From positions 12,333-76,332 of the forward strand of contig JBBRAK010000002.1 of NCBI GenBank assembly GCA_038206875.1: DNA of 64,000 bases. Direction: 5' to 3'. Position 1 is the stretch's first letter; each line of letters begins with the position of its first letter. The position numbers and the translations under genes are program-made. Below, piece after piece: positions 2,755 to 14,388 of this stretch. The notes under the pieces are model-generated. The model saw nothing but the letters and a program-made list of their open reading frames with translations. It was not told where the DNA came from and ran no database searches. This stretch comes from Candidatus Saccharimonadales bacterium. GTDB lineage: Bacteria; Patescibacteriota; Saccharimonadia; Saccharimonadales; JBBQAJ01.

Positions 2755-3831
2755 ATGAATAAGCTCACAATTTTCAAAAAAGTTAGTTTAGCACTAGTAG
2801 GAATACTTTCATTAGGTGTTCTTGTAAGTTCGGCTGTTGCCCACGCTATTCCCTACAACGGGGATGATACTGTTGCTTCTCAATCACCAGCCTTTAACGT
2901 CTTTACTGGCGTTCCAGCACCTTGGGGTAACGAAAGTGATTTCTTACGTGCTCGTGTTGACGACGGAAGTAGCACTGACTATTCTGACCCGCTCACCAAC
3001 GGCTGTGCTAATGGTACAAAATTCCAAATGCGTGTTTATGTACACAATGGTGCCAGCGCAGGTGGTAACAATAACGGAAGTGGCCCAAGTGTGGCACACG
3101 GTGCCAAAGTCAAAGTTAGTATTCCTGGAAATGAAGCAAGTATTTTCTCACCAAGTGCTAGTATAAGCGCAACAAACGCTGGAACTGTAAACGACGTAAC
3201 TACAATCAATTGTAACGGTCGTAAGGTGAAAATGACCTACATACCCGGCTCTGCCACATCATATAGTAAAGGCACCGGCGTAGTACAGCTAAGCGACTCA
3301 ATTGTTTCTAGCGGTACTGCAATACGTAGTCATGGTGTTTCAGGTGACGTATGGGGTTGTTGGGATGAAAGAGTCTACGTTGTTCTAAGCGTTAAAGTTG
3401 AAGCAGTCCCAGTTGTTGTTCCTTCAAGCGGTGAATGTAAGCTAAGCGATCTAAAAGTTTTTGATAACCGTAAAGTACGAGTTAGCATAACAGGCAAAAC
3501 TACAAATGCAACTGTAGTAGGTTACTCAACTGATTTTGGAGACGGCTCTACCAGCAACAACCAAACAGCTGAACACACTTACACCAAAGACGGAACTTAC
3601 ACTATCGTATCTAAAGTACAGGTAAAATTCGCAGATGGTAGCATGAAGTGGTTAGATTCAGCTTCATGTGTTAAAAAAGTTGAATTCAAGCCTGGTAAAC
3701 CGCCTGTAGTTATCCCTCCGGTTACTACTCTACCTAACACAGGTCCAAGCGATATGATTGGTATATTTGCAGCCGTAAGTATAGCCGGCGCACTCGTACA
3801 CAAGTTCATTCTTAGCCGACGATACCAGTAA
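2755..3831 (+). CDS. LPXTG-anchored surface protein with PKD-like domain
   Basis: Start chosen at ATG 2755 (AAGGAT at 2741-2746) rather than TTG 2725. Has a signal peptide and a PKD-like motif (DFGDGSTSNNQTAEHTYTKDGTYTI). C-terminal sorting signal is LPNTG, then a hydrophobic stretch, then RRYQ. Confidence 0.8.
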   Translation: MNKLTIFKKVSLALVGILSLGVLVSSAVAHAIPYNGDDTVASQSPAFNVFTGVPAPWGNESDFLRARVDDGSSTDYSDPLTNGCANGTKFQMRVYVHNGASAGGNNNGSGPSVAHGAKVKVSIPGNEASIFSPSASISATNAGTVNDVTTINCNGRKVKMTYIPGSATSYSKGTGVVQLSDSIVSSGTAIRSHGVSGDVWGCWDERVYVVLSVKVEAVPVVVPSSGECKLSDLKVFDNRKVRVSITGKTTNATVVGYSTDFGDGSTSNNQTAEHTYTKDGTYTIVSKVQVKFADGSMKWLDSASCVKKVEFKPGKPPVVIPPVTTLPNTGPSDMIGIFAAVSIAGALVHKFILSRRYQ

Positions 3832-4033: not shown

Positions 4034-4108
4034 GGTCCCATCGTCTAATGGTTAGGACACCAGGTTTTCATCCTGGCAATAGGAGTTCGATTCTCCTTGG
4101 GATCACCA
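4034..4108 (+). tRNA. tRNA-Glu (anticodon UUC), CCA encoded
   Basis: Cloverleaf folded by hand. Acceptor GGTCCCA/TGGGATC (one G-U). Anticodon stem CCAGG/CCTGG with loop TTTTCAT. T-arm AGGAG-TTCGATT-CTCCT. Discriminator A followed by CCA. Confidence 0.9.
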
Positions 4109-5648
4109 TAGCAGAATTTGCAACCGAATCAGCCTCCATTTCAGACGTAATACATCTGTAAAGGGGGCTGATTTCGTTGATTATAAAGTTCTGCTTTTTA
4201 GTATCGTATTCAAACCCGCTGGGGAAGATGAGTGCTTGGAACTTTTGCTTTCGTTCTAATGAAGCGTCTGACCACTGTTTTGCAACGTTACCCATAAAGT
4301 TCAGGGCGTATTCTATGTTTGATTCACTAACAGTTTGTTGTTGCTCTAGTTCGTTGATTTCTCGGCTAACGTCAATCTTTTCTATGTCTAGGTCGTCTAC
4401 GACCATAGCCTTTTCCTCGTCAGTTAAGCCACCGTTCACGTACTTCTTAATAGTATTCGCCCTCGTCTTGGCAATACCGTCTAGCTTGTCACGTAGCTGT
4501 GCGAGGTCTTCATTAAGACTACCTAGCTCTTTCACTGACGTGCGAACCAGCACTTCTTTCATAAGTTTAATGGTTTTGGGCTTAGGCGCAATCTTCGTAA
4601 GTAAGTCTTCAAACCCTAGGTGGGCGTCTTCTACTAATACCGAACCAGTGCCACGGCAGCTTTTCCTTGCACAGTAATAACGATACTCACCGCCAGGATT
4701 GCTGCGAGTCATGTGTTTGTGACAGTTCGTGCAGTTTATGAAGCGACTAAGTGGTGCCATGTTATTTATTTTATGATGTTTTAGCCCAATCAGGTACACT
4801 TTATTTTTCTGCTTTAGTAATTCCTGATTCTGCCAAAAGGTAGCTTCGTCAATAAGTGCGGGGTGCTTACCCTGAACAATTTCTTTACCCGTAAAAGAAT
4901 CACACACAAAACCAGCGTATTCGGGGCGTTTGAGCATTTTAGTCATAACCTCTTGGTTAATGGGTTTACCGTTCAGCCCAAAGAAATCTATGCAAGTGGC
5001 GTAACGGCACATTTCAGCGATAATCTTGTCGCCCTTATTGAAACGCATAAGTATCTTAGCTACTTTGTCGGCTTCTGCTCCTTTCGCCATTGTTGGGCGT
5101 TCATGCCCTTCGGAGTTTTTAATCTTTTGCGACTTATAACCTCGTATGGGCTTATGTTGCCAGTAGCCTTGTTTGGCAAGGCGGGTCATGTTATCTATAA
5201 CGGTTTCACGCTTATTCTCGTTGTCTAGTTGTCCAACCATGACGTATAGGCTTTCCATGAATTTACCCATTGGACTATCATCAAATTGCTCGGTAGCAGA
5301 ACGTATTTGTATGCCTTTAGACGCTAGGATAGAACGCATACCCATTATGTAGCTATCTATGTCACGACTTGCACGGTTCATCTTGTAGACAATGACGTAG
5401 TCTATCGTGCCTTTCATTTTCAGGGCGAGTTTAAGTAGGTTCTGTAGTTCTTCTCGGTCTGTATTCTTGCCAGACTTGGCTTCATCAAAGAACCACTTCA
5501 CAACGTTAATGCCGTTAGCGTCAGCGTACTTTTGTATTACCTCACGCTGGTTCTTCTTGCTTTCGCCCTTGATTTGTTTCTTGTCGGAAATACGAAGATA
5601 GCCGAGTGCGGCTTTCTTTGGTTTAATAGTATTTATTGTATCTGACAT
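4068..5648 (-). CDS. large serine recombinase (integrase)
   Basis: 526-aa ORF. N-terminal resolvase catalytic motifs (GYLRISDKKQ, DEAKSG, NRASRD), a central recombinase domain, a Cys cluster (CTNCHKHM..YYCARKSCRG, zinc ribbon) and a coiled-coil C-terminus. The last 13 codons are antisense to tRNA-Glu. Confidence 0.9.
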   Translation of the reverse strand: MSDTINTIKPKKAALGYLRISDKKQIKGESKKNQREVIQKYADANGINVVKWFFDEAKSGKNTDREELQNLLKLALKMKGTIDYVIVYKMNRASRDIDSYIMGMRSILASKGIQIRSATEQFDDSPMGKFMESLYVMVGQLDNENKRETVIDNMTRLAKQGYWQHKPIRGYKSQKIKNSEGHERPTMAKGAEADKVAKILMRFNKGDKIIAEMCRYATCIDFFGLNGKPINQEVMTKMLKRPEYAGFVCDSFTGKEIVQGKHPALIDEATFWQNQELLKQKNKVYLIGLKHHKINNMAPLSRFINCTNCHKHMTRSNPGGEYRYYCARKSCRGTGSVLVEDAHLGFEDLLTKIAPKPKTIKLMKEVLVRTSVKELGSLNEDLAQLRDKLDGIAKTRANTIKKYVNGGLTDEEKAMVVDDLDIEKIDVSREINELEQQQTVSESNIEYALNFMGNVAKQWSDASLERKQKFQALIFPSGFEYDTKKQNFIINEISPLYRCITSEMEADSVANSAMVIPRRIELLLPG

Positions 5649-5690
5649 AAGTATATTTAAGGTTATAATGGACTAATTGGCAAGTATATT

Positions 5691-5882
5691 CTATTTAAGT
5701 AATTCTAGAGCTAGGTCTTCTAGCTGTAAAATCAAGGGAATGAGCTGACTATCACTCAAGTCTTTGGCGGTGTACCCCAATATCTTGCGGGCTTCTTTCG
5801 GGGAAATGATGAGACTCGCTGTAAGTTGCTCTAATGTCGGTTCCTTTGTTTTCATAACATTTATCCAAGGGTCGGTCAGCAA
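5691..5882 (-). CDS. small hypothetical protein (candidate Xis/RDF by position)
   Basis: 63-aa ORF, probable start at M10 (5855), lying between the two recombinase-family genes. No motif recognised. Confidence 0.45.
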   Translation of the reverse strand: MLTDPWINVMKTKEPTLEQLTASLIISPKEARKILGYTAKDLSDSQLIPLILQLEDLALELLK

Positions 5883-5904
5883 TTAACCAACCGACCCACG
5901 AGCA

Positions 5905-6381
5905 TTAGCCTAGTAGCCCCGTTGAGTCATGCTGTTGCATACGTTTTGCCAAACCCTGCTTAACACGCATTGAGCGTTGTTCTGACTCGAACTGTTCGAG
6001 CATAAGTTGTATAGCTTCCATAAAACGACCCATTGGCTCATTAGTGTTTGTGCTGCACTGGTCAGTGGTCACGACATCGACATCGTGACGTGCAAGAGCG
6101 TTTTTGAAAAACATAAATTCGCAGTAGTCACGGCTAATACGAGCGTTGTTTTGTACGATTAGGGTGCTGATTTCTGGGTGATTCTCGCAGTACGTTATTA
6201 TCTCGTCTAATTGTTCAGCAGAGATTTTACCGATACACATAAAGTACGTTTGAATGCTTAAATAGTGCCGTCCTGCGTACTGCTCAATTTTGGCTTTTTG
6301 GCTCGCTAGGGAATTACCCGTTTTTGTTTGTTGCTTATGTGTTGCACGCACGAATGCGATTGCTTGTTTTGGAGTTTTCAT
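5905..6381 (-). CDS. resolvase catalytic-domain-only paralogue (Ser to Thr at nucleophile position)
   Basis: 158-aa ORF that aligns to the N-terminus of the adjacent recombinase: AFVRATHKQQ vs GYLRISDKKQ, ARISRD vs NRASRD, EPMGRFMEAI vs SPMGKFMESL. It has no recombinase, zinc-ribbon or HTH domain. Confidence 0.7.
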   Translation of the reverse strand: MKTPKQAIAFVRATHKQQTKTGNSLASQKAKIEQYAGRHYLSIQTYFMCIGKISAEQLDEIITYCENHPEISTLIVQNNARISRDYCEFMFFKNALARHDVDVVTTDQCSTNTNEPMGRFMEAIQLMLEQFESEQRSMRVKQGLAKRMQQHDSTGLLG

Positions 6382-6437
6382 ATCGTTAGTTGTTCCTTGT
6401 GTTAAGTAGTGAGATGTATCTATATGTAGTATTGAAT

Positions 6438-6561
6438 TAGTAACCTATGTAGTAATTGAGGGAATCCATAAAGAGTTATCCATTAAGCAGTAACTCTGTA
6501 TAAGTACCTATAAGCTGTATAGTTTCAGTAACCTATACAGTTCTATATAGAGAACCTATGG
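6438..6561. repeat. iteron-like repeat cluster in an AT-rich intergenic region
   Basis: AGTAACCTAT at 6439-6448 and 6527-6536, AGTACCTAT at 6503-6511, AGAACCTAT at 6551-6559. Inverted repeat CTGTATAG (6515-6522) / CTATACAG (6533-6540). Confidence 0.6.
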
Positions 6562-6587
6562 CGGTGTATGGAGTAGAACGCTAGTCA

Positions 6588-6956
6588 TTAGAAGCTACCG
6601 TCTGTGCTGGGAAATTGGTCGTTCAGTTTATTGTCACGAATGTAACTGTCAGCAGCACGCATGGCTTCATCACGAATCAGGTCTAAGAAAAAGCTGTCGC
6701 CACTGAACTCAATTGGATTAACCCACTTGCCAGCTAAGAAGCTCGGCATTTGGAACCACAGATTGTTGTATTTCGGCGAGGGGCGAACTGTGCAACTGTT
6801 GATGTACATACGCAGACTTGGTATATGCACCTTGATGTACATGATGTTCTTCTGGCTGTTGAAGGCGTAGACTTGGGCTGTTACGTCAGTCATATCTAGT
6901 TGCATGACTGTTCTCCATGTATGTTGTGCCATAGCAAGTGCAATAGGTCGTACCAT
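6588..6956 (-). CDS. hypothetical protein, weakly SpoVG-like
   Basis: Maximal ORF is 122 aa. The likely start is M18 or M22 (6905 or 6893), adjacent to the upstream stop. The pattern M-DVT.., ..FQMPS.., NPIEF faintly recalls SpoVG. Tentative. Confidence 0.45.
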   Translation of the reverse strand: MVRPIALAMAQHTWRTVMQLDMTDVTAQVYAFNSQKNIMYIKVHIPSLRMYINSCTVRPSPKYNNLWFQMPSFLAGKWVNPIEFSGDSFFLDLIRDEAMRAADSYIRDNKLNDQFPSTDGSF

Positions 6957-7273
6957 TCTTCAGTGTTCTGGTAGCGTTCACAGAAAATACGATCCAGCTG
7001 GGCTTCTACGATTTCTACATTCAGGCACTTACGGCGTTGTTGCTTTATGTAGAACTTCTGACGTAACCAGCTCGGCTTCGGCTTGCCAGCCTGTACAAAT
7101 AGCCACTTAGCCGCAGCAAGCTGCTGACGTGTGATTGTTATTTCGTTTTTAGACGAAACTTTCATCTGAGAAGTCGTGTCAGAAATCGTTGTTTGGTGGT
7201 CAAGAGCACTATTGATGTGTTCTGGCTCATTTTGATTGTTTTTGTTGTGACTTTCTTTCTTAATGTTTTTCAT
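6896..7273 (-). CDS. hypothetical protein
   Basis: 125-aa ORF in the same operon orientation as its neighbours. N-terminus is polar and low-complexity. No motif recognised. Confidence 0.5.
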   Translation of the reverse strand: MKNIKKESHNKNNQNEPEHINSALDHQTTISDTTSQMKVSSKNEITITRQQLAAAKWLFVQAGKPKPSWLRQKFYIKQQRRKCLNVEIVEAQLDRIFCERYQNTEEWYDLLHLLWHNIHGEQSCN

Positions 7274-7361
7274 ACAGAAACCTTTCTTTGTGAGCTAGTC
7301 GGCGGGACAAGTGATTGCCGATTCGCTCATTAACCTGTCCTGCATATAATTATCGAGGCAT

Positions 7362-7393
7362 AAAAAAGAGATTCCCGACAGAGCCGAGAATCT
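7362..7393 (-). terminator. rho-independent terminator (minus strand)
   Basis: On the minus strand, stem AGATTC/GAATCT (7369-7374 / 7388-7393) with a 13-nt loop is followed by TTTTTT (plus-strand A-run 7362-7367). It lies just downstream of the 7428-8255 gene. Confidence 0.55.
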
Positions 7394-7427
7394 TAAAACA
7401 ACACCTTACAATTCTCTGAATTGCAGA

Positions 7428-8255
7428 CTATTTGGGTTTTACTGTATTGACAAGCCTTTCAATAATCGCTGCTTCACTACTGTTGAGTGATTTGTGCGGA
7501 TTGAGCATTATTGTTTGTTCTTTTGTATTGACGCTCACGAAGATGTCTTTTATTTCGCCAGTGAAGCCCATGAGCTTCGGCCAGTCTTTCGCCTTTGAGC
7601 GTATTGTTTTGAAGTGTGTGCCTAGGTCGTCTTTCTTTACCCATTCGTCTGGCCTGACTAGGAGGTACTTTACCAAGTGATAGTTGAAACGCTTTCTGCT
7701 GTCAAAGCGTTTAATTGTAAGAGTAATACCTAGGTAACTCAATTTTAATGACTGCTGGACTAGGAATATTTTAGCGATATGGTTGCCATTCAATCCAGTG
7801 GTCTCCATGACAAGCCGTGGCATTGGATTCTCATTTGGATTGAATCCGTGAGATTCGCAGAACTGTATAAAACGGTCATGGTCAAAGCTATCAAGGAAAC
7901 GTAGCCAATCATACTCACGATGTGCTGGATCAGTGGTGTTCCAATCGCCCCATACGGTGTTTGTCCACTCCTTAGGTATATTAGAATTAAATGATTTGGC
8001 AATCTCTAGCTCTTCCTGTGCTTGCAGCACTTGGTTACGATACCAATTTTCGTCAGAGCGAGTTTTTAATACACCTGCTTGTGTTAGCGTCTCAACGGCA
8101 CGGTCTTCGTCAGCAACATTGTCCAAGTTCTCATTAGACGAAAGCTTGTTGTCCCAATCAAATACCCAACGGCGGTCATCAAAATCACTACCGTCAAGAA
8201 ATAAGTTGTTGAGCTTGAAGACCACTCGCTGTAACCACTTATTATTGTCTGCCAT
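7428..8255 (-). CDS. hypothetical protein (possible DNA-binding or replication function)
   Basis: The ORF track gives 7428-8417. I prefer ATG at 8255 (MADNNKW..) because the 8417 start would overlap the divergent 8359 gene. Trp/Asp-rich with no recognised domain. The functional guess is from position only. Confidence 0.55.
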   Translation of the reverse strand: MADNNKWLQRVVFKLNNLFLDGSDFDDRRWVFDWDNKLSSNENLDNVADEDRAVETLTQAGVLKTRSDENWYRNQVLQAQEELEIAKSFNSNIPKEWTNTVWGDWNTTDPAHREYDWLRFLDSFDHDRFIQFCESHGFNPNENPMPRLVMETTGLNGNHIAKIFLVQQSLKLSYLGITLTIKRFDSRKRFNYHLVKYLLVRPDEWVKKDDLGTHFKTIRSKAKDWPKLMGFTGEIKDIFVSVNTKEQTIMLNPHKSLNSSEAAIIERLVNTVKPK

Positions 8256-8358
8256 CAGGGGTAGTATAACCGCCTGACAACAGTAACTCAAATGCTGATA
8301 CCTGATCCAATCTGTAATAATAGGTATAGGGATTAACACAAAAACAAAGGATTTACTC

Positions 8359-8592
8359 ATGGCGGTTAAAAACACTGTCGGCCGGCCACCGAAAATGTCG
8401 ATGAAAATACTCGACAAATTATCTGATTCAATTTCCCACAGTTACAGTGTCGGTGACTCGTGCCGCTATGCGAAAATTTCGAAAAGCACTTTTTACCAAT
8501 ACCTAAGAAGTGAGCCAATCTTTGCGGATAGAATTGCCACTGCTCGGGAAAACCAACGTAAAGTAAGCTTTAATTTTCGCACATTTTATTAG
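8359..8592 (+). CDS. small HTH protein (terminase-small-subunit/resolvase-type HTH, possibly a remnant)
   Basis: 77-aa ORF. GRPPK plus CRYAKISKSTFYQYL..FADRIATARE resembles the N-terminal HTH of phage TerS-like proteins. The ORF ends shortly after. Confidence 0.5.
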   Translation: MAVKNTVGRPPKMSMKILDKLSDSISHSYSVGDSCRYAKISKSTFYQYLRSEPIFADRIATARENQRKVSFNFRTFY

Positions 8593-8828
8593 CTTAACCA
8601 GTCGCATTGTAGACGATTTCGCTAAAATCAATGTCTGAAAATTAGTACCTCGCTCAAGCTGGTTAATGTTGGAAAATGGCGTTGAAGTGTAAAAAATCTG
8701 GAAAAATAATTCCACGGGCTAAATAGGTCTTTTTCAGCTCAAAATAATGAACGAACCCTTAGCAATATCGCTCTCTGTGGGCTCTCTGGAGCGTCTAGGA
8801 CGTGTTCGTACACGAAAGTCGAGTAAAG

Positions 8829-9053
8829 CTACAACCCTTTGAACAATTGCTCTAATGTGATGTCTAGTGAATTAGCAATTTTATGGAGTGTTGAGAGCGT
8901 AGGCTTTCTGCGTCCTTGTTCAATATAGCCCATATGTGAGCGGTCTATGCCACTAGCTGAAGCGAGCTTTTCTTGGCTCATGCCTTTATCATTACGAGCC
9001 TTCACGATTCTCTTACCGATTTCAGCATAAACGTGGTCAATGGTTGATTTCAT
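8829..9053 (-). CDS. XRE/Cro-CI family transcriptional regulator
   Basis: 74-aa ORF with a classic HTH_3 pattern (MSQEKLASASGIDRSHMGYIEQGRRKPTLSTLHKIANSL). Confidence 0.85.
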   Translation of the reverse strand: MKSTIDHVYAEIGKRIVKARNDKGMSQEKLASASGIDRSHMGYIEQGRRKPTLSTLHKIANSLDITLEQLFKGL

Positions 9054-9078
9054 TAACCTAAGCGTATTGCTTACAAAA

Positions 9079-9124
9079 GTCAGTAACCACTGACAGATGT
9101 CAGCGAGTATGATATATTACTGAC
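9079..9124. promoter_or_regulatory. operator array between the XRE gene and the divergent DUF4352 gene
   Basis: Overlapping palindromes GTCAGT-aacc-ACTGAC (9079-9094) and CTGAC-agat-GTCAG (9090-9103). A further ACTGAC lies at 9119-9124. Confidence 0.55.
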
Positions 9125-9150
9125 AAATGTAATCAAGAGAGGTTTCCAGA

Positions 9151-9741
9151 ATGTCAGAAGAAAAGAAGAAGAAGAACTGGTTCGCAAAGCACAAGATACT
9201 AACCGTAATACTTGCGATTATCGTAATTGCAGTAGTAGCTAACGCTGCTGGTGGCGGTAGCAAGAGTAATAGCTCTACAAGTGGTGGTAGCGGTAATAGT
9301 GGTAGTGGCGAAAAGACATACAAGTTTAATGAGCGAGCCGACAAGCAACCAAAAGATGTAGAAGTATTGCCCGGCGAAACAGCAACCGTAAGTGGCGTTA
9401 AGATGACCTTATCGGGTGTAGAATACAAGACCGCTGTGAGCGACTATGAAAAAGCAGATGACGGTAAAACCTACGTTGTTGCTGACGTTACGCTTGAGAA
9501 CACTACTGATAAAACACAGTCGTATAACTCATTGTATTTTCGTATGCAGACCGCTGGTGGACAGGTGCTAGATAGCACGTTTGCTACTGTTCCTAGTCCG
9601 TTAAATTCTGGAGACATTGTAGCTGGCGGGAAAGTCACTGGTAAGGTGGTCTTTGAAGTACCAGTAGAAGACGGTCATCAGTACGTTATTTGGAAGCCGG
9701 GTGCTTACAATGCAGACCGTGCTATCGTTCAGGTAAAGTAG
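9151..9741 (+). CDS. DUF4352 domain membrane-anchored protein
   Basis: 196-aa ORF with an N-terminal TM, a Gly/Ser linker, then a DUF4352-like Ig domain (TYVVADVTLENTTDKTQSYNSLYF, GGKVTGKVVFEVP). Confidence 0.75.
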   Translation: MSEEKKKKNWFAKHKILTVILAIIVIAVVANAAGGGSKSNSSTSGGSGNSGSGEKTYKFNERADKQPKDVEVLPGETATVSGVKMTLSGVEYKTAVSDYEKADDGKTYVVADVTLENTTDKTQSYNSLYFRMQTAGGQVLDSTFATVPSPLNSGDIVAGGKVTGKVVFEVPVEDGHQYVIWKPGAYNADRAIVQVK

Positions 9742-9763
9742 TCAAGTTAATTTAGTAAAGTAA

Positions 9764-9788
9764 GGGGCGGCAGCTGTCGCCCCTTTTT
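9764..9788 (+). terminator. rho-independent terminator
   Basis: GGGGCG (9764-9769) / CGCCCC (9778-9783), 8-nt loop, followed by TTTTT (9784-9788). Confidence 0.8.
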
Positions 9789-9867
9789 CTTAGTTGACGT
9801 TTATTGCTTATGCTTGTGTTGCTTATTTGTTAATTATATAATCTAGGTAATTATTTAAGGAGTTAGC

Positions 9868-10872
9868 GTGTCAGCCGAAATACTAAGCCAATATAGCGAC
9901 TCGCCAGAAGCATACAATCCTCTAGCGAACCACCCAGACCCAGAGCAACTAGTTCTAAATAGCTTAAATCAAGGTACAGTCCTTGCGGGACGTGAGAAGC
10001 CATTTACTTGGGAGTTAGATAACATAACTTCCGAGGGTGCGTTACACCGTTATCGTGCGGAAGTAGAAGTAGAAGCACTCATTAACCTTGCAGAACGTGG
10101 ACCAGTGGATATTGAGATGAGTAGTGCCGACAAGCTCGTTCTCCGCAGCTTGTATGATGAAGACCACTTTGACCCAGACACAGTTATTCGGCTTGACCAC
10201 TTGGGTTATAAGGGTCAGCCACCATTAGAACATGACGTAAAAGCGGTGGAAGTTTATCTTGCGGAACAGTTGGACGAATATAGCCTAGGACATCTAAAAG
10301 AATGGGTTCACTTTGGTATGACTTCGGAAGATACTAATAATCTTGCTTACAACCTCATGCTTCGTGACGCTGCGAATAAAGTTATTGTTCCTTCTGTTAC
10401 ACGTGTTGCTGACCGTTTAGCTCACCTAGCAACTGTTTATGCAGATACCCCTACACTTGGTGTTACTCACGCTCAAAAAGCTTCACCGACTACCGTTGGT
10501 AAGCAGTTTGGTTACTTGCTGGCAAACATTACTAAAGTATCGGAAGAATTAGACGGTAAGCGTTTGAGCGGTAAGTTCAGTGGTGCTGTTGGCAATCACA
10601 ACCCAATGACCGTATTGTTCCCAGAGTTTGACTATGACGAATACTCAAAAGACTTCGTTGAGGGCATGGGCTTTACCTATGCTTCTGTTGAGAACCAGCG
10701 AAACGACCACCTTGCAGTAACCGATTTGCTATCAATCGTTTCTAGACTTGCGTTGGTAGGTAAAGACGCTACTGATAATGTTTGGTTGCAGATACTAGGC
10801 AACAAGCTAACACAACGACTTGTAGCTGGCGAAAAAGGCTCATCTACCATGTCTCACAAAATTAACCCTTAG
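9868..10872 (+). CDS. adenylosuccinate-lyase-like protein, N-terminal part ending at in-frame TAG
   Basis: GTG start with AAGGAG at 9857-9862. Fumarate-lyase family motifs present: HDVKAVE, TSEDTNNL, THAQKASPTTVGK, GAVGNHN, GSSTMSHKINP. The ORF stops immediately after the signature. Confidence 0.75.
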   Translation: MSAEILSQYSDSPEAYNPLANHPDPEQLVLNSLNQGTVLAGREKPFTWELDNITSEGALHRYRAEVEVEALINLAERGPVDIEMSSADKLVLRSLYDEDHFDPDTVIRLDHLGYKGQPPLEHDVKAVEVYLAEQLDEYSLGHLKEWVHFGMTSEDTNNLAYNLMLRDAANKVIVPSVTRVADRLAHLATVYADTPTLGVTHAQKASPTTVGKQFGYLLANITKVSEELDGKRLSGKFSGAVGNHNPMTVLFPEFDYDEYSKDFVEGMGFTYASVENQRNDHLAVTDLLSIVSRLALVGKDATDNVWLQILGNKLTQRLVAGEKGSSTMSHKINP

Positions 10873-10917
10873 AGATTAGAGAACGCTGAATCCCTCTTTG
10901 GACAAGCGATTGCTTTA

Positions 10918-12039
10918 ATGAGTCGTGCACCAGAGGGGCTTGTAGCAAGCCGTCACGAAAGAGACTTATCAGACCACGGCTGGCAGCGTGCCTACGGTGA
11001 TATGATTGGGCGAGTTGTTGCTGGCTTTAATTACTTCGCAGTTCAGCTTGACCGACTTGCTGTTGACGAAGACGGTGCTAGAGAAACACTGAACCAGTCT
11101 GCTGAAGTTTTGAGTGAGTTAGTTCAGACTGCTGGGCGTGTATCAGGGGATCCAGACGCTTATGACAAGGTGGTTACACTAACTCAGGGCAAGAAACTTG
11201 ACCTAGCGGGTATTCGTGAGGTTATTGACGAAGCCTTGCCTGACGGTGAATTAAAAGACCGTGTTGCTGCTGTTACGCCAGATATGTATGTCGGTGTTGC
11301 TGGCGAGAAAGCCCGTGAAGCGGTGCTGGGCTGGCACGCAGCAAAGTTGATTCTAAGACGTGGCGTGCTTGATGAGTCAACAAGTATTGACGCAGTATTG
11401 TTTGACCTTGACGATACGCTTCACTTCGGAGTTAAAGATGAGGTCATTGCAAAGCTAACGCACATATTTGGTGAGTTTGAATCTGGCTTTTCAGAAGAAG
11501 AAATCAAAGATTACTCCAAGATACACGACTTCAGTAAAATGGTTGAAGCAATGGTTGCTGAACACAATGTTCGTAGCTCAACAAAGCTAACAGTTGATGA
11601 CTTTATGACGGCTAACGGTAGAGTTACTGGTAGCTTTGACCATATGTTTTACGCACCAACAGAATCAAAAGAAGTTATTCAGACAGTGCGTGAAAGCGGT
11701 AAAGTGACGGGACTTGTCACAACGAGGGGTCCAGTATCGCTAGGTCGTGTGCTTGATTTGCACGGCTTTAGTGATTCGTTTGATGTGATAATTGGCGGTG
11801 GAGATGTAAAGAGGCGTAAGCCACACCCAGAACCATTAGCAATAGCACTCGGCAAGCTTGGAATTAACCCAGAACGTAGTATGTATGTGGGCGATGACCA
11901 AGACGCTGATGTTGGTGCTGCCATGGCTCTAGGAATGAAAACTGCTTTAGTTGGTGAAACTCCTCCAGACCCATACGGTCCAAAGCCAACTTATCATTGG
12001 AAAGACTTGCAACCACTCGCAAGGCTATACGCCCGATGA
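10918..12039 (+). CDS. C-terminal part of the same lyase fused to a HAD phosphatase domain
   Basis: Same frame as 9868-10872, and codons 10873-10917 are also open. Lyase C-terminal motifs SRHERDLSDH and LTQGKKLD. HAD motifs DLDDT, TTRG, KRRKPHPEP, GDDQDAD. Confidence 0.75.
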   Translation: MSRAPEGLVASRHERDLSDHGWQRAYGDMIGRVVAGFNYFAVQLDRLAVDEDGARETLNQSAEVLSELVQTAGRVSGDPDAYDKVVTLTQGKKLDLAGIREVIDEALPDGELKDRVAAVTPDMYVGVAGEKAREAVLGWHAAKLILRRGVLDESTSIDAVLFDLDDTLHFGVKDEVIAKLTHIFGEFESGFSEEEIKDYSKIHDFSKMVEAMVAEHNVRSSTKLTVDDFMTANGRVTGSFDHMFYAPTESKEVIQTVRESGKVTGLVTTRGPVSLGRVLDLHGFSDSFDVIIGGGDVKRRKPHPEPLAIALGKLGINPERSMYVGDDQDADVGAAMALGMKTALVGETPPDPYGPKPTYHWKDLQPLARLYAR

Positions 12040-12605
12040 TTCACAAGATACCCATTTCTGGCGGACCATGCACAGGTAAAACAACGCTTGTAGAAGCATT
12101 ACATGAACGCTTTCCCGACGCTTACTTTGTTGATGAGCCAGCCACACGAGTTATAGAACGTGAGCTTGATTTTGAATCAAGACATGATGATTATGAACCA
12201 AAAGTTCCATGGCTCGACTACCCTAACTTTGCCCCAATGGCAATTGCAGAGTCAATTGCACTTGAGGACTCAATTCCTTACGAGGCTGGTGTGACATTTC
12301 TAGACCGTAGCCTAGTTGATAACATTGCCTATGGTCGTATTAACGGCTTTGAGGACTTAATACCCGATGTGCAGCTTAGAATATGGCTTGCACGCTATAG
12401 CTTTGCACTAATTTGCCAACCACTTGAACAGTACCTAGCAACAGAAGTAAGACGGGAAACAGCAGAAGAAGCACTGTTCACACACGCAGCCATTGAAGAA
12501 GCATACAGAGAATCCGAACTGGAAGTCGTTACCTTACCGCCAGTGAGCGTTGCCGACAGATTGTCATTGGTAGAGATTGCACTGCAAGAACGTGGACTAC
12601 TTTAG
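12036..12605 (+). CDS. AAA_28/NadR-kinase-like P-loop NTPase
   Basis: Start chosen at ATG 12036, which overlaps the upstream TGA (ATGA). Walker A is ISGGPCTGKTTL. Overall pattern matches AAA_28 ATPases. Confidence 0.65.
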   Translation: MIHKIPISGGPCTGKTTLVEALHERFPDAYFVDEPATRVIERELDFESRHDDYEPKVPWLDYPNFAPMAIAESIALEDSIPYEAGVTFLDRSLVDNIAYGRINGFEDLIPDVQLRIWLARYSFALICQPLEQYLATEVRRETAEEALFTHAAIEEAYRESELEVVTLPPVSVADRLSLVEIALQERGLL

Positions 12606-12894
12606 TACATCAAAAAACAATGAGATTATAAATGGCTTTTTTGTATTGTGAGTTTGTATCGTACTTTACGCCTGATTTGGCAAAGGCGACTTTCTAACTC
12701 GCAAGGCTCTTTTCGTCTAAATCTATAGTCGTACACACTATTATATTCTGCAATGGGGGATACTAGTGACTACTTAGCAAGCTGTAACTGATTACCGCCT
12801 AGGTTCATTCCCTTGAGTAGCTCGTTCCATCTAATGATTTCCGCCACTATAACCTTATAAACCGATAGGGGTAGGGTCACCATTATCGCAAATC

Positions 12895-14388
12895 ATGAAA
12901 CCAACTATTGCAGGGAATAACCATAACAGGTTAGAATATATGCAAATGGTGGAAACTACTAACAGGGTACCAAATGTACCACTTGCTAAATTTAAACGAA
13001 CCAAGATAATTGCTACACTTGGTCCTGCAACAGACAGCTACGACTCGGTGCTACAACTCATCAAAGCCGGTGCAAATGGAATAAGGCTTAATTTTAGTCA
13101 TGGTAACCCCGAAGAACGGGTCAAACACATAAAATGGATTCGAAAGGCTGCGGCCGAATACGGCAAACCAATTGCGATAATTCAAGATTTGCAAGGACCC
13201 AAAATACGTCTAGGCGATTTTGACAGTATAATAAATGTTCAAAAAGGCCAATCTCTAAGATTTGGTTACAACGCCAACTTTTCAGACGATGGGGTACTTC
13301 CAACCCAGTATGATTTGAGCCAAAAAGTAAAAAGAGGCGAGCGACTATATCTGTACGATGGACACGTAAAAACCACGATTACTAGTGTCAAAGACGGGAT
13401 AGTTCACGCAACGGCCGAAAACGAGGGCATTCTCATAAAAAGAAAAGGCATAAACCTGCCAGACACGAATTTTGAAGGCGATGTTATAACCAAAAAAGAC
13501 AAAACAGATTTGGCATTTGGTTCAGAGCATGACATTGATTATGTAGCTCAAAGTTTTGTCCAGTCGGCTAGCGACATCCGTAGTATGCGCCGAATAATGA
13601 ACAACCTGGGGATGAATGCAAAGCTTATAGTAAAATTTGAAACCAAATCAGCAGTCGAACACATGGAGGAGATAGTCAAAGAATCAGATGTAATCATGAT
13701 TGCGCGGGGAGACTTGGCAGTAGAAGTGCCAGCGGAATCCGTTCCTGTTTTGCAAAGACAATTAGTAGGACTTGGTATCAAATATTCCAAACCCACGATT
13801 GTAGCAACCCAAATGCTGTTTAGTATGGCAGAAGCATCCGAACCAACTCGCGCCGAAGTTTCAGACGTGGCAACAGCTGTAATAATTGGCGCTGATTGTG
13901 TGATGCTGAGTGAAGAGACGGCAATCGGTAAATACCCCATAAAATCTGTCGAAACCATGAAAAAAGTAATCCTTTATACTCAAGCAAATTCACCGCTAAG
14001 AGCAATTTACTACAACGATGAAGAATCCATAAAAACCAAACAGTCTGCTATTTCGCAGGCTGTTATGAATTTGGCAGATAACTTGCAGGCAAAAGCGATT
14101 GTTGCAGAAACAAAGTCTGGCGAAACCGCCCTACAGTTGGTGTCTAGAAGACCAAGCCAACCAATTGTTGCAGTAACCTCTGTAAATAGAGTTGCACAAC
14201 AACTGGCAATTGTATATGGTGTAAAAAGTTATGTACGACCAGATGACAAAATGGCAGCGACCAAACTTACAAACTGGCTACTTCAGAGCAAAGTACTCAA
14301 AAAAGGCGACATGATTGTCACAGCTTCTGGGCAATATCCTGGCGTAGTAGGAACTACAGATACTATTAAAATTCGGGTGTTAAAATAA
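12895..14388 (+). CDS. pyk: pyruvate kinase
   Basis: Motifs KIIATLGPAT, NFSHG, DLQGPKIR, MIARGDLAVE. The true start may be M16 or M18 (12940 or 12946). Confidence 0.9.
   Translation: MKPTIAGNNHNRLEYMQMVETTNRVPNVPLAKFKRTKIIATLGPATDSYDSVLQLIKAGANGIRLNFSHGNPEERVKHIKWIRKAAAEYGKPIAIIQDLQGPKIRLGDFDSIINVQKGQSLRFGYNANFSDDGVLPTQYDLSQKVKRGERLYLYDGHVKTTITSVKDGIVHATAENEGILIKRKGINLPDTNFEGDVITKKDKTDLAFGSEHDIDYVAQSFVQSASDIRSMRRIMNNLGMNAKLIVKFETKSAVEHMEEIVKESDVIMIARGDLAVEVPAESVPVLQRQLVGLGIKYSKPTIVATQMLFSMAEASEPTRAEVSDVATAVIIGADCVMLSEETAIGKYPIKSVETMKKVILYTQANSPLRAIYYNDEESIKTKQSAISQAVMNLADNLQAKAIVAETKSGETALQLVSRRPSQPIVAVTSVNRVAQQLAIVYGVKSYVRPDDKMAATKLTNWLLQSKVLKKGDMIVTASGQYPGVVGTTDTIKIRVLK

Follow-up and report, generated by a model that had tools for sequence, protein, structure and literature searches.

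How does a mobile element come to write the last codons of its own integrase on the antisense strand of a host tRNA gene? The question is raised by a 64-kb stretch of a Candidatus Saccharimonadales genome (GenBank assembly GCA_038206875.1, contig JBBRAK010000002.1, positions 12,333 to 76,332; hereafter the window, with positions counted from its first letter), in which the gene for a large serine recombinase (LSR) runs into a tRNA-Glu gene and stops there. The region from 4103 to 12883 is very probably an island that was put in by this LSR at the ACCA end of tRNA-Glu, with the attachment site of the element (attP) lying inside the integrase gene (int), such that integration splits the gene and would give rise to state-dependent isoforms and supply a replacement terminator for the tRNA. 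At the level of sequence, the comparisons assembled here establish LSR insertion at the tRNA terminus, the location of attP inside int, and predicted C-termini that differ between the integrated and excised states.

The two ends of the island

The single tRNA gene of the window is a tRNA-Glu(ttc), placed by ARAGORN at 4034-4108 on the plus strand. The open reading frame (ORF) on the opposite strand encodes 526 amino acids (aa), ends in ..SAMVIPRRIELLLPG, and overlaps the tRNA by 41 nt. Its residues 1-515 (4104-5648) form a body that closes with a Met-Val pair sitting on the core of the left attachment site (attL), which is shared with the right site (attR); the remaining stretch (4068-4103), 11 codons followed by the TGA stop, is read from the antisense strand of the tRNA, the stop being the complement of 4068-4070, that is, of anticodon nt 35-36 and nt 37. 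An intact tRNA-Glu(UUC) and a 526-aa serine recombinase terminating within it at 4068 had been reported in a preliminary description of the locus, and both are borne out. So is the observation that the region opposes the strand bias of its surroundings, at least for 4068-9053, where coding is on the minus strand, versus almost exclusively plus-strand ORFs up to ~58 kb.

Classification of the protein as an LSR follows from several features. Searches with Pfam hidden Markov models (HMMs) find Resolvase (PF00239, E 7.5e-26) and Recombinase (PF07508, 22.3 bits versus a cutoff of 21.1) above their cutoffs, the latter being precomputed for many homologues as well. S21 (R-I-S-D-K-K-Q) is invariant in a family alignment of 35 sequences, and a Cys4 zinc ribbon is recognised by the invariant cysteines C306, C309, C326, and C331, with PF13408 present in homologues. 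An AlphaFold 2 (AF2) model of a long-form homologue (mean predicted local distance difference test score, pLDDT, 85) contains coiled-coil helices at 357-404 and 410-438 inside the zinc-ribbon region, and the homologue P0029 matches the PDB entries 3guv and 3bvp (TP901-1). Because the two domains, the invariant serine and cysteines, and the modelled coiled-coil helices occur together, the protein displays all LSR sequence features examined and can be classified as such. Similarity to named LSRs in NCBIfam is remote (XisF, 73 bits versus a cutoff of 375; CcrB, 70 versus 900), and the absence of any Phage_integrase match in Pfam or NCBIfam indicates that the enzyme is not a tyrosine recombinase.

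The preliminary description had pointed to a heptamer, TCACCAT, at the tRNA 3' end (4103-4109; ATGGTGA on the integrase strand) and again at 12877-12883, and had proposed the second copy as attR of an element of about 8.78 kb. Both copies are present, but the repeat alone proves no better a signal than chance: the heptamer occurs five times in the 64-kb window versus 7.75 expected, and it was rejected as evidence for attR by itself. Tail homology was therefore used instead. The minus strand at the distal site carries an orphan integrase 3' end encoding a conserved tail helix (..VIVAEIIRWNELL..), and joining the ends across the core gives ..SAMVTLPLSVYKVIVAEIIRWNELLKGMNLGGNQLQLAK followed by a stop, an exact reproduction of the 35-codon tail reconstructed earlier for the circular junction. 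BLASTP aligns the joined tail with residues 514-535 of the intact homologue P0029, right past the junction (68% identity, E 2e-8); the window tail is also 72% identical (E 8e-18) to an orphan tail at locus L007, whose integrase is 71-72% identical to that of the window. When a tail HMM was trained on 16 long tails from other loci, leaving out that of the window, its one significant match across the 64 kb was the minus-strand interval 12892-12773 (E 1e-4; next match, E 0.47). Given this homology between the orphan tail and the tails carried by intact long-form integrases, the distal attR is taken to be genuine and the element to span ~8.78 kb (8775 bp, core to core), an assignment that also agrees with the breakpoints and parallel loci described below. 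The match between orphan and intact tails likewise bears out the idea, raised in the same description, of an integrase C-terminus that depends on integration. The duplication pattern of tyrosine integrases, in which the distal end would carry a displaced 3' half of the tRNA, was considered and rejected, as no second copy of the tRNA 3' 28-mer (≤3 mismatches) exists elsewhere in the window.

Comparison with relatives delimits the same interval. The order tRNA-Glu then pyk is kept in three Saccharimonadales metagenome-assembled genomes, L001, L002, and L003. In the closest, L001 (pyk 87% identical, tRNA-Glu identical), nucleotide similarity to the window stops at 4108 and is back at 12903, with none in between; its own tRNA-pyk interval consists of 6.9 kb of unrelated genes without an LSR. 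The corresponding gap in L002 and L003 is 0.6-1.0 kb, and both have a native intrinsic terminator after the tRNA. Since similarity to L001 breaks at these points and the gap is so short in the other two relatives, 4109-12902 is best read as an insertion, the ends of which lie 0 nt (left) and ~20 nt (right) from the proposed cores. The boundaries coincide with TCACCAT, and the 4.1-12.9-kb gene set is missing from the relatives. An exact-protein look-up of the window pyk returned no match.

The relatives preserve traces of other events at the same site. Some 420 bp downstream of its tRNA-Glu, L001 contains (3453-3497, minus strand) a TCACCAT core with a tail remnant, MVNHKESKWNDI.., and no integrase nearby; this is a decayed attR, left where the tRNA-Glu site was used earlier by an element that is now largely deleted. 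Downstream of the tRNA in L002, a stretch of 20 nt (750-769) repeats the 3' end of tRNA-Glu and is accompanied by a second T-arm-like fragment (~930-955); the two resemble scars left at this hot spot by other elements with duplication-type attachment sites.

The position of the crossover can be narrowed by comparing attL with attR across 21 elements, in which the block of identity is only 6-7 bp. Positions just 5' of TGGT differ between the two sites in most loci, and in L016 and L041/L043 the sites also differ at core position 5 (tRNA nt 72). Because attL and attR differ on both sides of TGGT, strand exchange is probably limited to these four nucleotides, the antisense of the discriminator plus CCA (ACCA, 4105-4108); a crossover at this end would leave the tRNA intact without a duplicated tRNA segment.

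Directly 3' of the tRNA, the linker codons of int form a long hairpin (-37.2 kcal/mol, z -7.6, with 0 of 200 shuffles folding as well) that corresponds to an inverted repeat, I1, at 4121-4179. Glu-clade relatives keep it (z -4.6 and -5.0), and the Met clade and some Glu-clade members have a canonical intrinsic terminator at the same position, with a GC-rich stem followed by a T-run whose columns T31-T33 are invariant in the terminator alignment. RNAalifold finds covariation in 5 of 7 consensus pairs of the Met-clade P arms, a result blurred by two stem registers. Native unoccupied sites (L002, L003, L005) have a terminator straight after the tRNA, and the hairpin may stand in for it as terminator or insulator of the tRNA gene.

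Split integrase genes across the family

Approximately 250 homologues, mostly from Saccharibacteria, fall into two classes by C-terminus. Proteins of ~525 aa end in what reads as an antisense tRNA T-arm and acceptor (..MVIPRRIELLLPG, ..RGIEPRLPG, ..LVAGAGLEPATLWL), and those of 545-556 aa have a different tail of ~35 aa (e.g. ..MVTLSHSIYKSIVEEIIRWNAIT.. in P0029 and ..LVAQVHSNWNDILTELSRWRKI.. in P0114). The short C-terminus is found solely in homologues adjoining a tRNA; those located elsewhere carry the long tail.

A metagenome scan yielded 80 loci, 62 of them with a usable integrase 3' end. The ORF ends antisense in tRNA-Met(cat) at 31 loci and in tRNA-Glu(ttc/ctc) at 17, for a total of 48 of the 62. 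Four others have a long tail, five have a disrupted integrase ORF, and in five the integrase is cut by a contig end, all of these still with tRNA-like tails. The tRNA-Glu loci are mostly in the clade that is ≥50% identical to the window integrase, and the tRNA-Met loci are in a clade at 40-47%. In all tRNA-antisense loci the frame across the tRNA CCA end is constant, with codons nTG-GTn. Of the 30 integrated loci that include upstream flank, 20 have an orphan tail ORF, on the same strand as int and 3.2-9.7 kb upstream of it, preceded by a core that matches that of attL (TGGTGA in the Glu clade, TGGT[T/A]GC in the Met clade).

The pattern extends to distant relatives. An exhaustive HMMER search of protein clusters returned 372 50%-cluster representatives at E ≤1e-30. 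The top 150 of these include 128 full-length proteins, at least 83 of which have the tRNA-antisense signature in their final 22 residues, and some of the remaining full-length representatives read through the whole tRNA or have long tails of the W-N type. P0264 (L088, 27% identity) and P0140 (L090, 30% identity) both end inside tRNA-Glu(ctc), with an orphan core and tail upstream (VVHLDSVSWNRVEEWLREV.. in L088, MVTQALRNWNHIYSNMQEM.. in L090). Because named cluster members come from Microgenomates and from candidate division WS6 (one protein each), the clade extends across phyla of the candidate phyla radiation (CPR). The preliminary description had treated tRNA targeting as exceptional for a serine integrase; within this clade, by the counts given above, it is the rule.

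Other arrangements were also seen. Some family members (P0037, P0074, P0122, P0148, P0178, L060, and L023) read through the entire antisense tRNA, e.g. ..GFEPTTFCSASKRSIQLSYG.., because there is no stop in the anticodon loop, and the family evidently uses tRNA targets beyond Glu and Met. The contigs of the long-tail loci L004 and L006 have no terminal overlaps and so give no evidence of circularity. The cassette-array-like arrangement at L005 (209-4810) opens with a full-length long-tail integrase, continues with two orphans of ATGGTGA plus tail (2545 and 3981) that alternate with ParE/Phd, RHH/ParE, and YafQ/RelB cassettes, and closes with tRNA-Glu(ctc) and its native terminator. L064/L065 (3101, 11561) has a chromosomal long-tail integrase whose tail type differs from that of the orphan at its own attR, and L068 has two orphan tails (2770, 4444), each after a similar terminator-like B' arm. 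The arrangements at L005, L064/L065, and L068 may reflect tandem or nested integration into attL, or accretion of cassettes. Inside the L016 element (8387-8605) lies an extra inverted copy of the last ~73 integrase codons, 56% identical to residues 447-519 of P0001.

Possible consequences of the tail exchange

The long tail carries the motif W/Y-N-x-I-x-x-E-I-x-R-W in an amphipathic helix that follows a flexible linker; in the AF2 model of the long form, a disordered linker (501-519) precedes a helix at 520-542 (pLDDT ~70). Codon-position entropies of 32 distinct tails reveal two zones. The first ~12 codons are conserved as DNA, third positions included (e.g. TTGGTTGCCCAAGTACAT..TGGAAC..ATC in the Met clade, in which TGGAAC is invariant), consistent with a P' half-site. 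At codons 15 (E), 16 (I/L), 18 (R), and 22 (L) the amino acid is kept although third positions vary, as does the first position of the Arg codon. Because residues beyond ~codon 13 are kept through synonymous change, the codon patterns argue strongly that the tail helix is under protein-level selection and not DNA constraint alone. What integration removes is this conserved amphipathic helix, and what it substitutes is a set of 11-13 residues dictated by the tRNA.

The sequence comparisons place attP inside the integrase gene, 35 codons ahead of the native stop, and integration for that reason splits the gene. The 515-codon body stays beside the tRNA, reads 11 antisense tRNA codons, and stops at the anticodon-loop TGA, and the native 35-codon tail is left orphaned at attR, 8.8 kb away and just upstream of pyk. 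Excision by attL x attR recombination would rebuild both a 550-aa integrase gene and the tRNA-pyk junction: the predicted attP has 12876 joined via TCACCAT to 4110, giving the 550-aa ORF, and the predicted attB has tRNA-Glu ..GGGATCACCAT joined to TATCGCAAATC..pyk. The long isoform, with its selected tail helix, would be the integration-competent episomal enzyme, and the short isoform, with a tRNA-coded tail, may be altered in activity or stability. The hairpin would replace the tRNA's own terminator and limit convergent read-through between tRNA and int.

Several observations weigh against this scheme. The scan for pyk in genome contigs found no clean empty attB among the three relatives, and 10 of the 30 integrated loci have no orphan tail within the flank at hand. 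The long-tail integrases of L005 and L064 are in chromosomal contexts that the simple model leaves unexplained. The window hairpin has a weak, non-canonical T-run and is not called by a consensus terminator scan. The short form keeps every recognised catalytic and DNA-binding domain, and the swap could be neutral.

LSR directionality is controlled by C-terminal and coiled-coil elements (PMC3783163, PMC2475636), which makes a role of the tail swap in directionality or commitment plausible. The change of isoform would bias one or the other, possibly with the ~60-aa product of the ORF upstream of int acting as a directionality factor. In its most specific form, which is put forward only tentatively, the gene split would be a built-in directionality switch: the helix-tailed long form would integrate, and the helix-less form would be unable to re-integrate and would be either poised for excision or blocked from it. 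If true, the element would "know" which state it is in, no separate regulatory circuit being needed, and this switch logic would be common to a large CPR clade of serine integrases that cut at the universal tRNA ACCA end.

It is also conceivable, if doubtful, that integration is "suicidal", as it is for archaeal SSV-type elements: loss of the helix would inactivate the integrase, and exit would require a full-length integrase in trans, if it took place at all. Selection on the tail at the protein level means that it is needed for some activity, integrated copies dominate the data, and the SSV family offers a precedent (PMC7253208). Further signs in this direction are the orphan-tail arrays and decayed remnants found at this hot spot (L001 3453-3497, L005, the L016 fragment). 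However, the loss amounts to only ~35 residues past the zinc ribbon, leaving the catalytic, recombinase, zinc-ribbon, and coiled-coil parts in place. Integrated int ORFs are moreover mostly intact, with just the five disruptions noted above, and orphan tails retain their frames and conserved residues, which argues for frequent re-joining.

A third account, in which attP merely happens to fall in the end of int and the two isoforms are equal, with tail conservation reflecting the DNA needs of the P' half-site, is rather unlikely. LSR C-terminal extensions vary widely among families, and DNA-level conservation in the first ~12 tail codons is what such a neutral overlap would leave. Beyond ~codon 13, however, at a distance from the core (>35 bp) that exceeds a typical half-site of ~25 bp, synonymous changes leave E, I/L, R, W, and L in place, and the W-N/helix motif persists in the relatives at 27-30% identity despite diverged DNA. 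Finally, the chance-level frequency of TCACCAT, a GC content not distinct from that of the flanks, and the metabolic genes among the cargo would all suit a non-mobile stretch of ancestral chromosome with a domesticated recombinase and a coincidental repeat, but this extremely improbable reading is ruled out by the L001 breakpoints at 4108 and 12903, by the homology of the orphan tail to intact tails, and by a family-wide architecture in which twenty further loci have the same bipartite structure and related elements conserve the int module and attR around completely different cargo.

Cargo, related systems, and implications

The features of the element are collected in Table 1. A tBLASTn search places homologues of the small ORF immediately upstream of int at the equivalent position in 52 loci spanning both clades, and at L035 the ORF overlaps the int start. 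No family for it exists in Pfam or PHROG; judged by position and conservation, it is the leading candidate for a directionality factor, and it may also be a DNA-binding partner. Aligned sequences of the adjacent resolvase-only paralogue have T, A, or S at the nucleophile position; the Ser is replaced by Thr in the window and by Ala in L004 (2377-3153) and L007 (9247-9729), and the protein may be a non-catalytic partner; as a core partner of the integrase it was rejected, being found in just 9 of 42 loci, all of the closest subclade. Upstream of the small resolvase gene, the intergenic DNA holds a pair of 38-nt direct repeats (6416-6453 and 6504-6541) that are 74% identical and spaced 88 nt apart; they could serve as operators or iteron-like sites.

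Table 1. Coordinates of the tRNA gene, attachment sites, and genes of the element, in window positions.
Feature	Position	Strand	Basis or remark
tRNA-Glu(UUC), intact; B arm of attL	4034..4108	+	ARAGORN; identical to tRNA-Glu of L001
LSR ORF, integrated form, 526 aa	4068..5648	-	Pfam, family alignment
attL core TCACCAT (ATGGTGA on integrase strand)	4103..4109		Shared with attR
Long hairpin in integrase C-terminal linker, antisense to int (P arm)	4110..4195	+	Folding versus shuffles
Small ORF immediately upstream of int, 54-63 aa	5691..5882	-	tBLASTn homologues
Resolvase-domain-only paralogue, 158 aa	5905..6381	-	Pfam Resolvase, E 8.5e-18
Three ORFs, 122, 125, and 329 aa	6588..8417	-	No Pfam/NCBIfam match
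77-aa helix-turn-helix (HTH) protein (HTH_7/small-terminase-N-like)	8359..8592	+	Pfam, PHROG
XRE-family HTH regulator	8829..9053	-	Pfam HTH_3, E 2.9e-13
DUF4352 secreted or membrane protein, cargo	9151..9741	+	Pfam DUF4352, E 7e-19; PHROG 806
Adenylosuccinate-lyase-like gene fused to HAD phosphatase, cargo	9868..12039	+	In-frame TAG 10870-10872
AAA_28/NadR-like kinase-type ATPase, cargo	11997..12605	+	Pfam AAA_28, E 1.4e-24; weak NCBIfam nadR match
Orphan integrase 3' end (MV + 35 codons + stop); P' arm of attR	12770..12883	-	Tail homology
attR core TCACCAT, 11 nt ahead of first pyk ATG	12877..12883		Shared core; L001 similarity back at 12903

Further along the element, the 125-aa ORF has a weak PHROG match to "DNA binding protein", and the 329-aa ORF is common to L026. 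The XRE and DUF4352 genes of the preliminary gene list are confirmed by Pfam; its TerS-type HTH fragment is recovered only as HTH_7 and Sf6-terminase-like matches below the Pfam cutoffs, together with a PHROG match to the small-terminase N-terminus (E 2.6e-11), and homologues of this 77-aa protein occur in the L013 and L016 elements. An in-frame TAG interrupts the lyase-like gene, a cargo gene of nucleotide metabolism whose C-terminal part (ASL_C) is fused to the HAD phosphatase, possibly indicating a pseudogene or stop-codon read-through.

The characterisation of the region as phage-like is not borne out: searches of Pfam, PHROGs, and NCBIfam found no virion structural, packaging, lysis, or conjugation genes in the element, the 77-aa HTH with its resemblance to small-terminase N-termini being the sole match of this kind; the cargo is metabolic or accessory, and IMG/VR, when scanned, yielded no integrase relative. 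By its gene content, the element appears to be a small cargo island and not a recognisable prophage. Related elements have the int module and the attR/tail region in common and differ in cargo, which comprises hydrolases and a dehydrogenase in L007, an EcoRII restriction-modification system in L004, toxin-antitoxin pairs in L005, SMODS/SLATT genes in L006, a HinP1I restriction-modification system in L090, and a single secreted protein in the minimal, 3.3-kb element of L035.

The element resembles those of known LSRs (phiC31, Bxb1, A118/LI, TP901-1, CcrAB, XisF) in its resolvase and recombinase domains, Cys4 zinc ribbon, and coiled-coil insert, as well as in its short attachment sites with a very small common core and the location of int at the element edge beside attP. 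It differs from them in targeting the ACCA end of a tRNA and in having attP within the int ORF, which gives the episomal and the integrated enzyme different C-termini. Use of t(m)RNA genes by serine integrases was noted for 14 of 297 islands in a survey that described it as "not reported previously" and still in need of proof (Mageeney et al., PMC7192596).

Closer parallels to the gene organisation come from tyrosine recombinases. In SSV-type elements (PMC7253208, PMC8371274), attP likewise lies in the int ORF, and integration at a tRNA partitions a gene that excision restores. Those enzymes are archaeal tyrosine recombinases, however, whereas that of the window is a serine recombinase in CPR bacteria; SSV-type attP contains a long (~40+ bp) tRNA copy in place of a core of 6-7 bp, and the SSV-type split leaves two inactive pseudogenes, whereas in the window element the swap is confined to the ~35 C-terminal residues, which give way to 11-13 tRNA-antisense ones. 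Mycobacteriophage BPs (PMC4557955, PMC3694055) also has attP in a coding gene, beside a tRNA attB, and its integration alters a protein C-terminus, but the protein remodelled there is the repressor, which loses a degradation tag, and the integrase is a tyrosine recombinase; in the window element it is the integrase itself that is remodelled. Tyrosine-integrase islands of the P4-like and Islander types share the position at a tRNA 3' end, the intact tRNA, the adjoining int, and the hot spot with repeated or decayed insertions. In contrast to these, the window element uses a serine recombinase, repeats only a 7-bp core without a duplicated tRNA 3' segment, and crosses over at the terminal ACCA as opposed to the anticodon or T loop. 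A literature search, incomplete in coverage, found no description of an LSR combining attP inside its ORF, a tRNA 3' target, and a tail swap, nor of tRNA-targeting LSRs in Saccharibacteria, and the clade is apparently undescribed.

Three traits set the clade apart, namely the targeting of the ACCA terminus, the placement of attP inside the integrase ORF, and the exchange of a selected C-terminal helix. Serine integrases are prized in genome engineering because they are simple and strictly directional, and how directionality is set is an active question, for which the clade constitutes a natural experiment on control by the C-terminus as well as a source of new integrase and attachment-site pairs with near-universal targets. 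Its members extend the concept of integrase gene partition from archaeal tyrosine to bacterial serine recombinases. They also show how small cargo islands, bearing restriction-modification, toxin-antitoxin, CBASS-like (cyclic-oligonucleotide-based antiphage signalling), and metabolic genes, move about in Saccharibacteria and other CPR bacteria, lineages with reduced genomes for which few mobile-element mechanisms are known.

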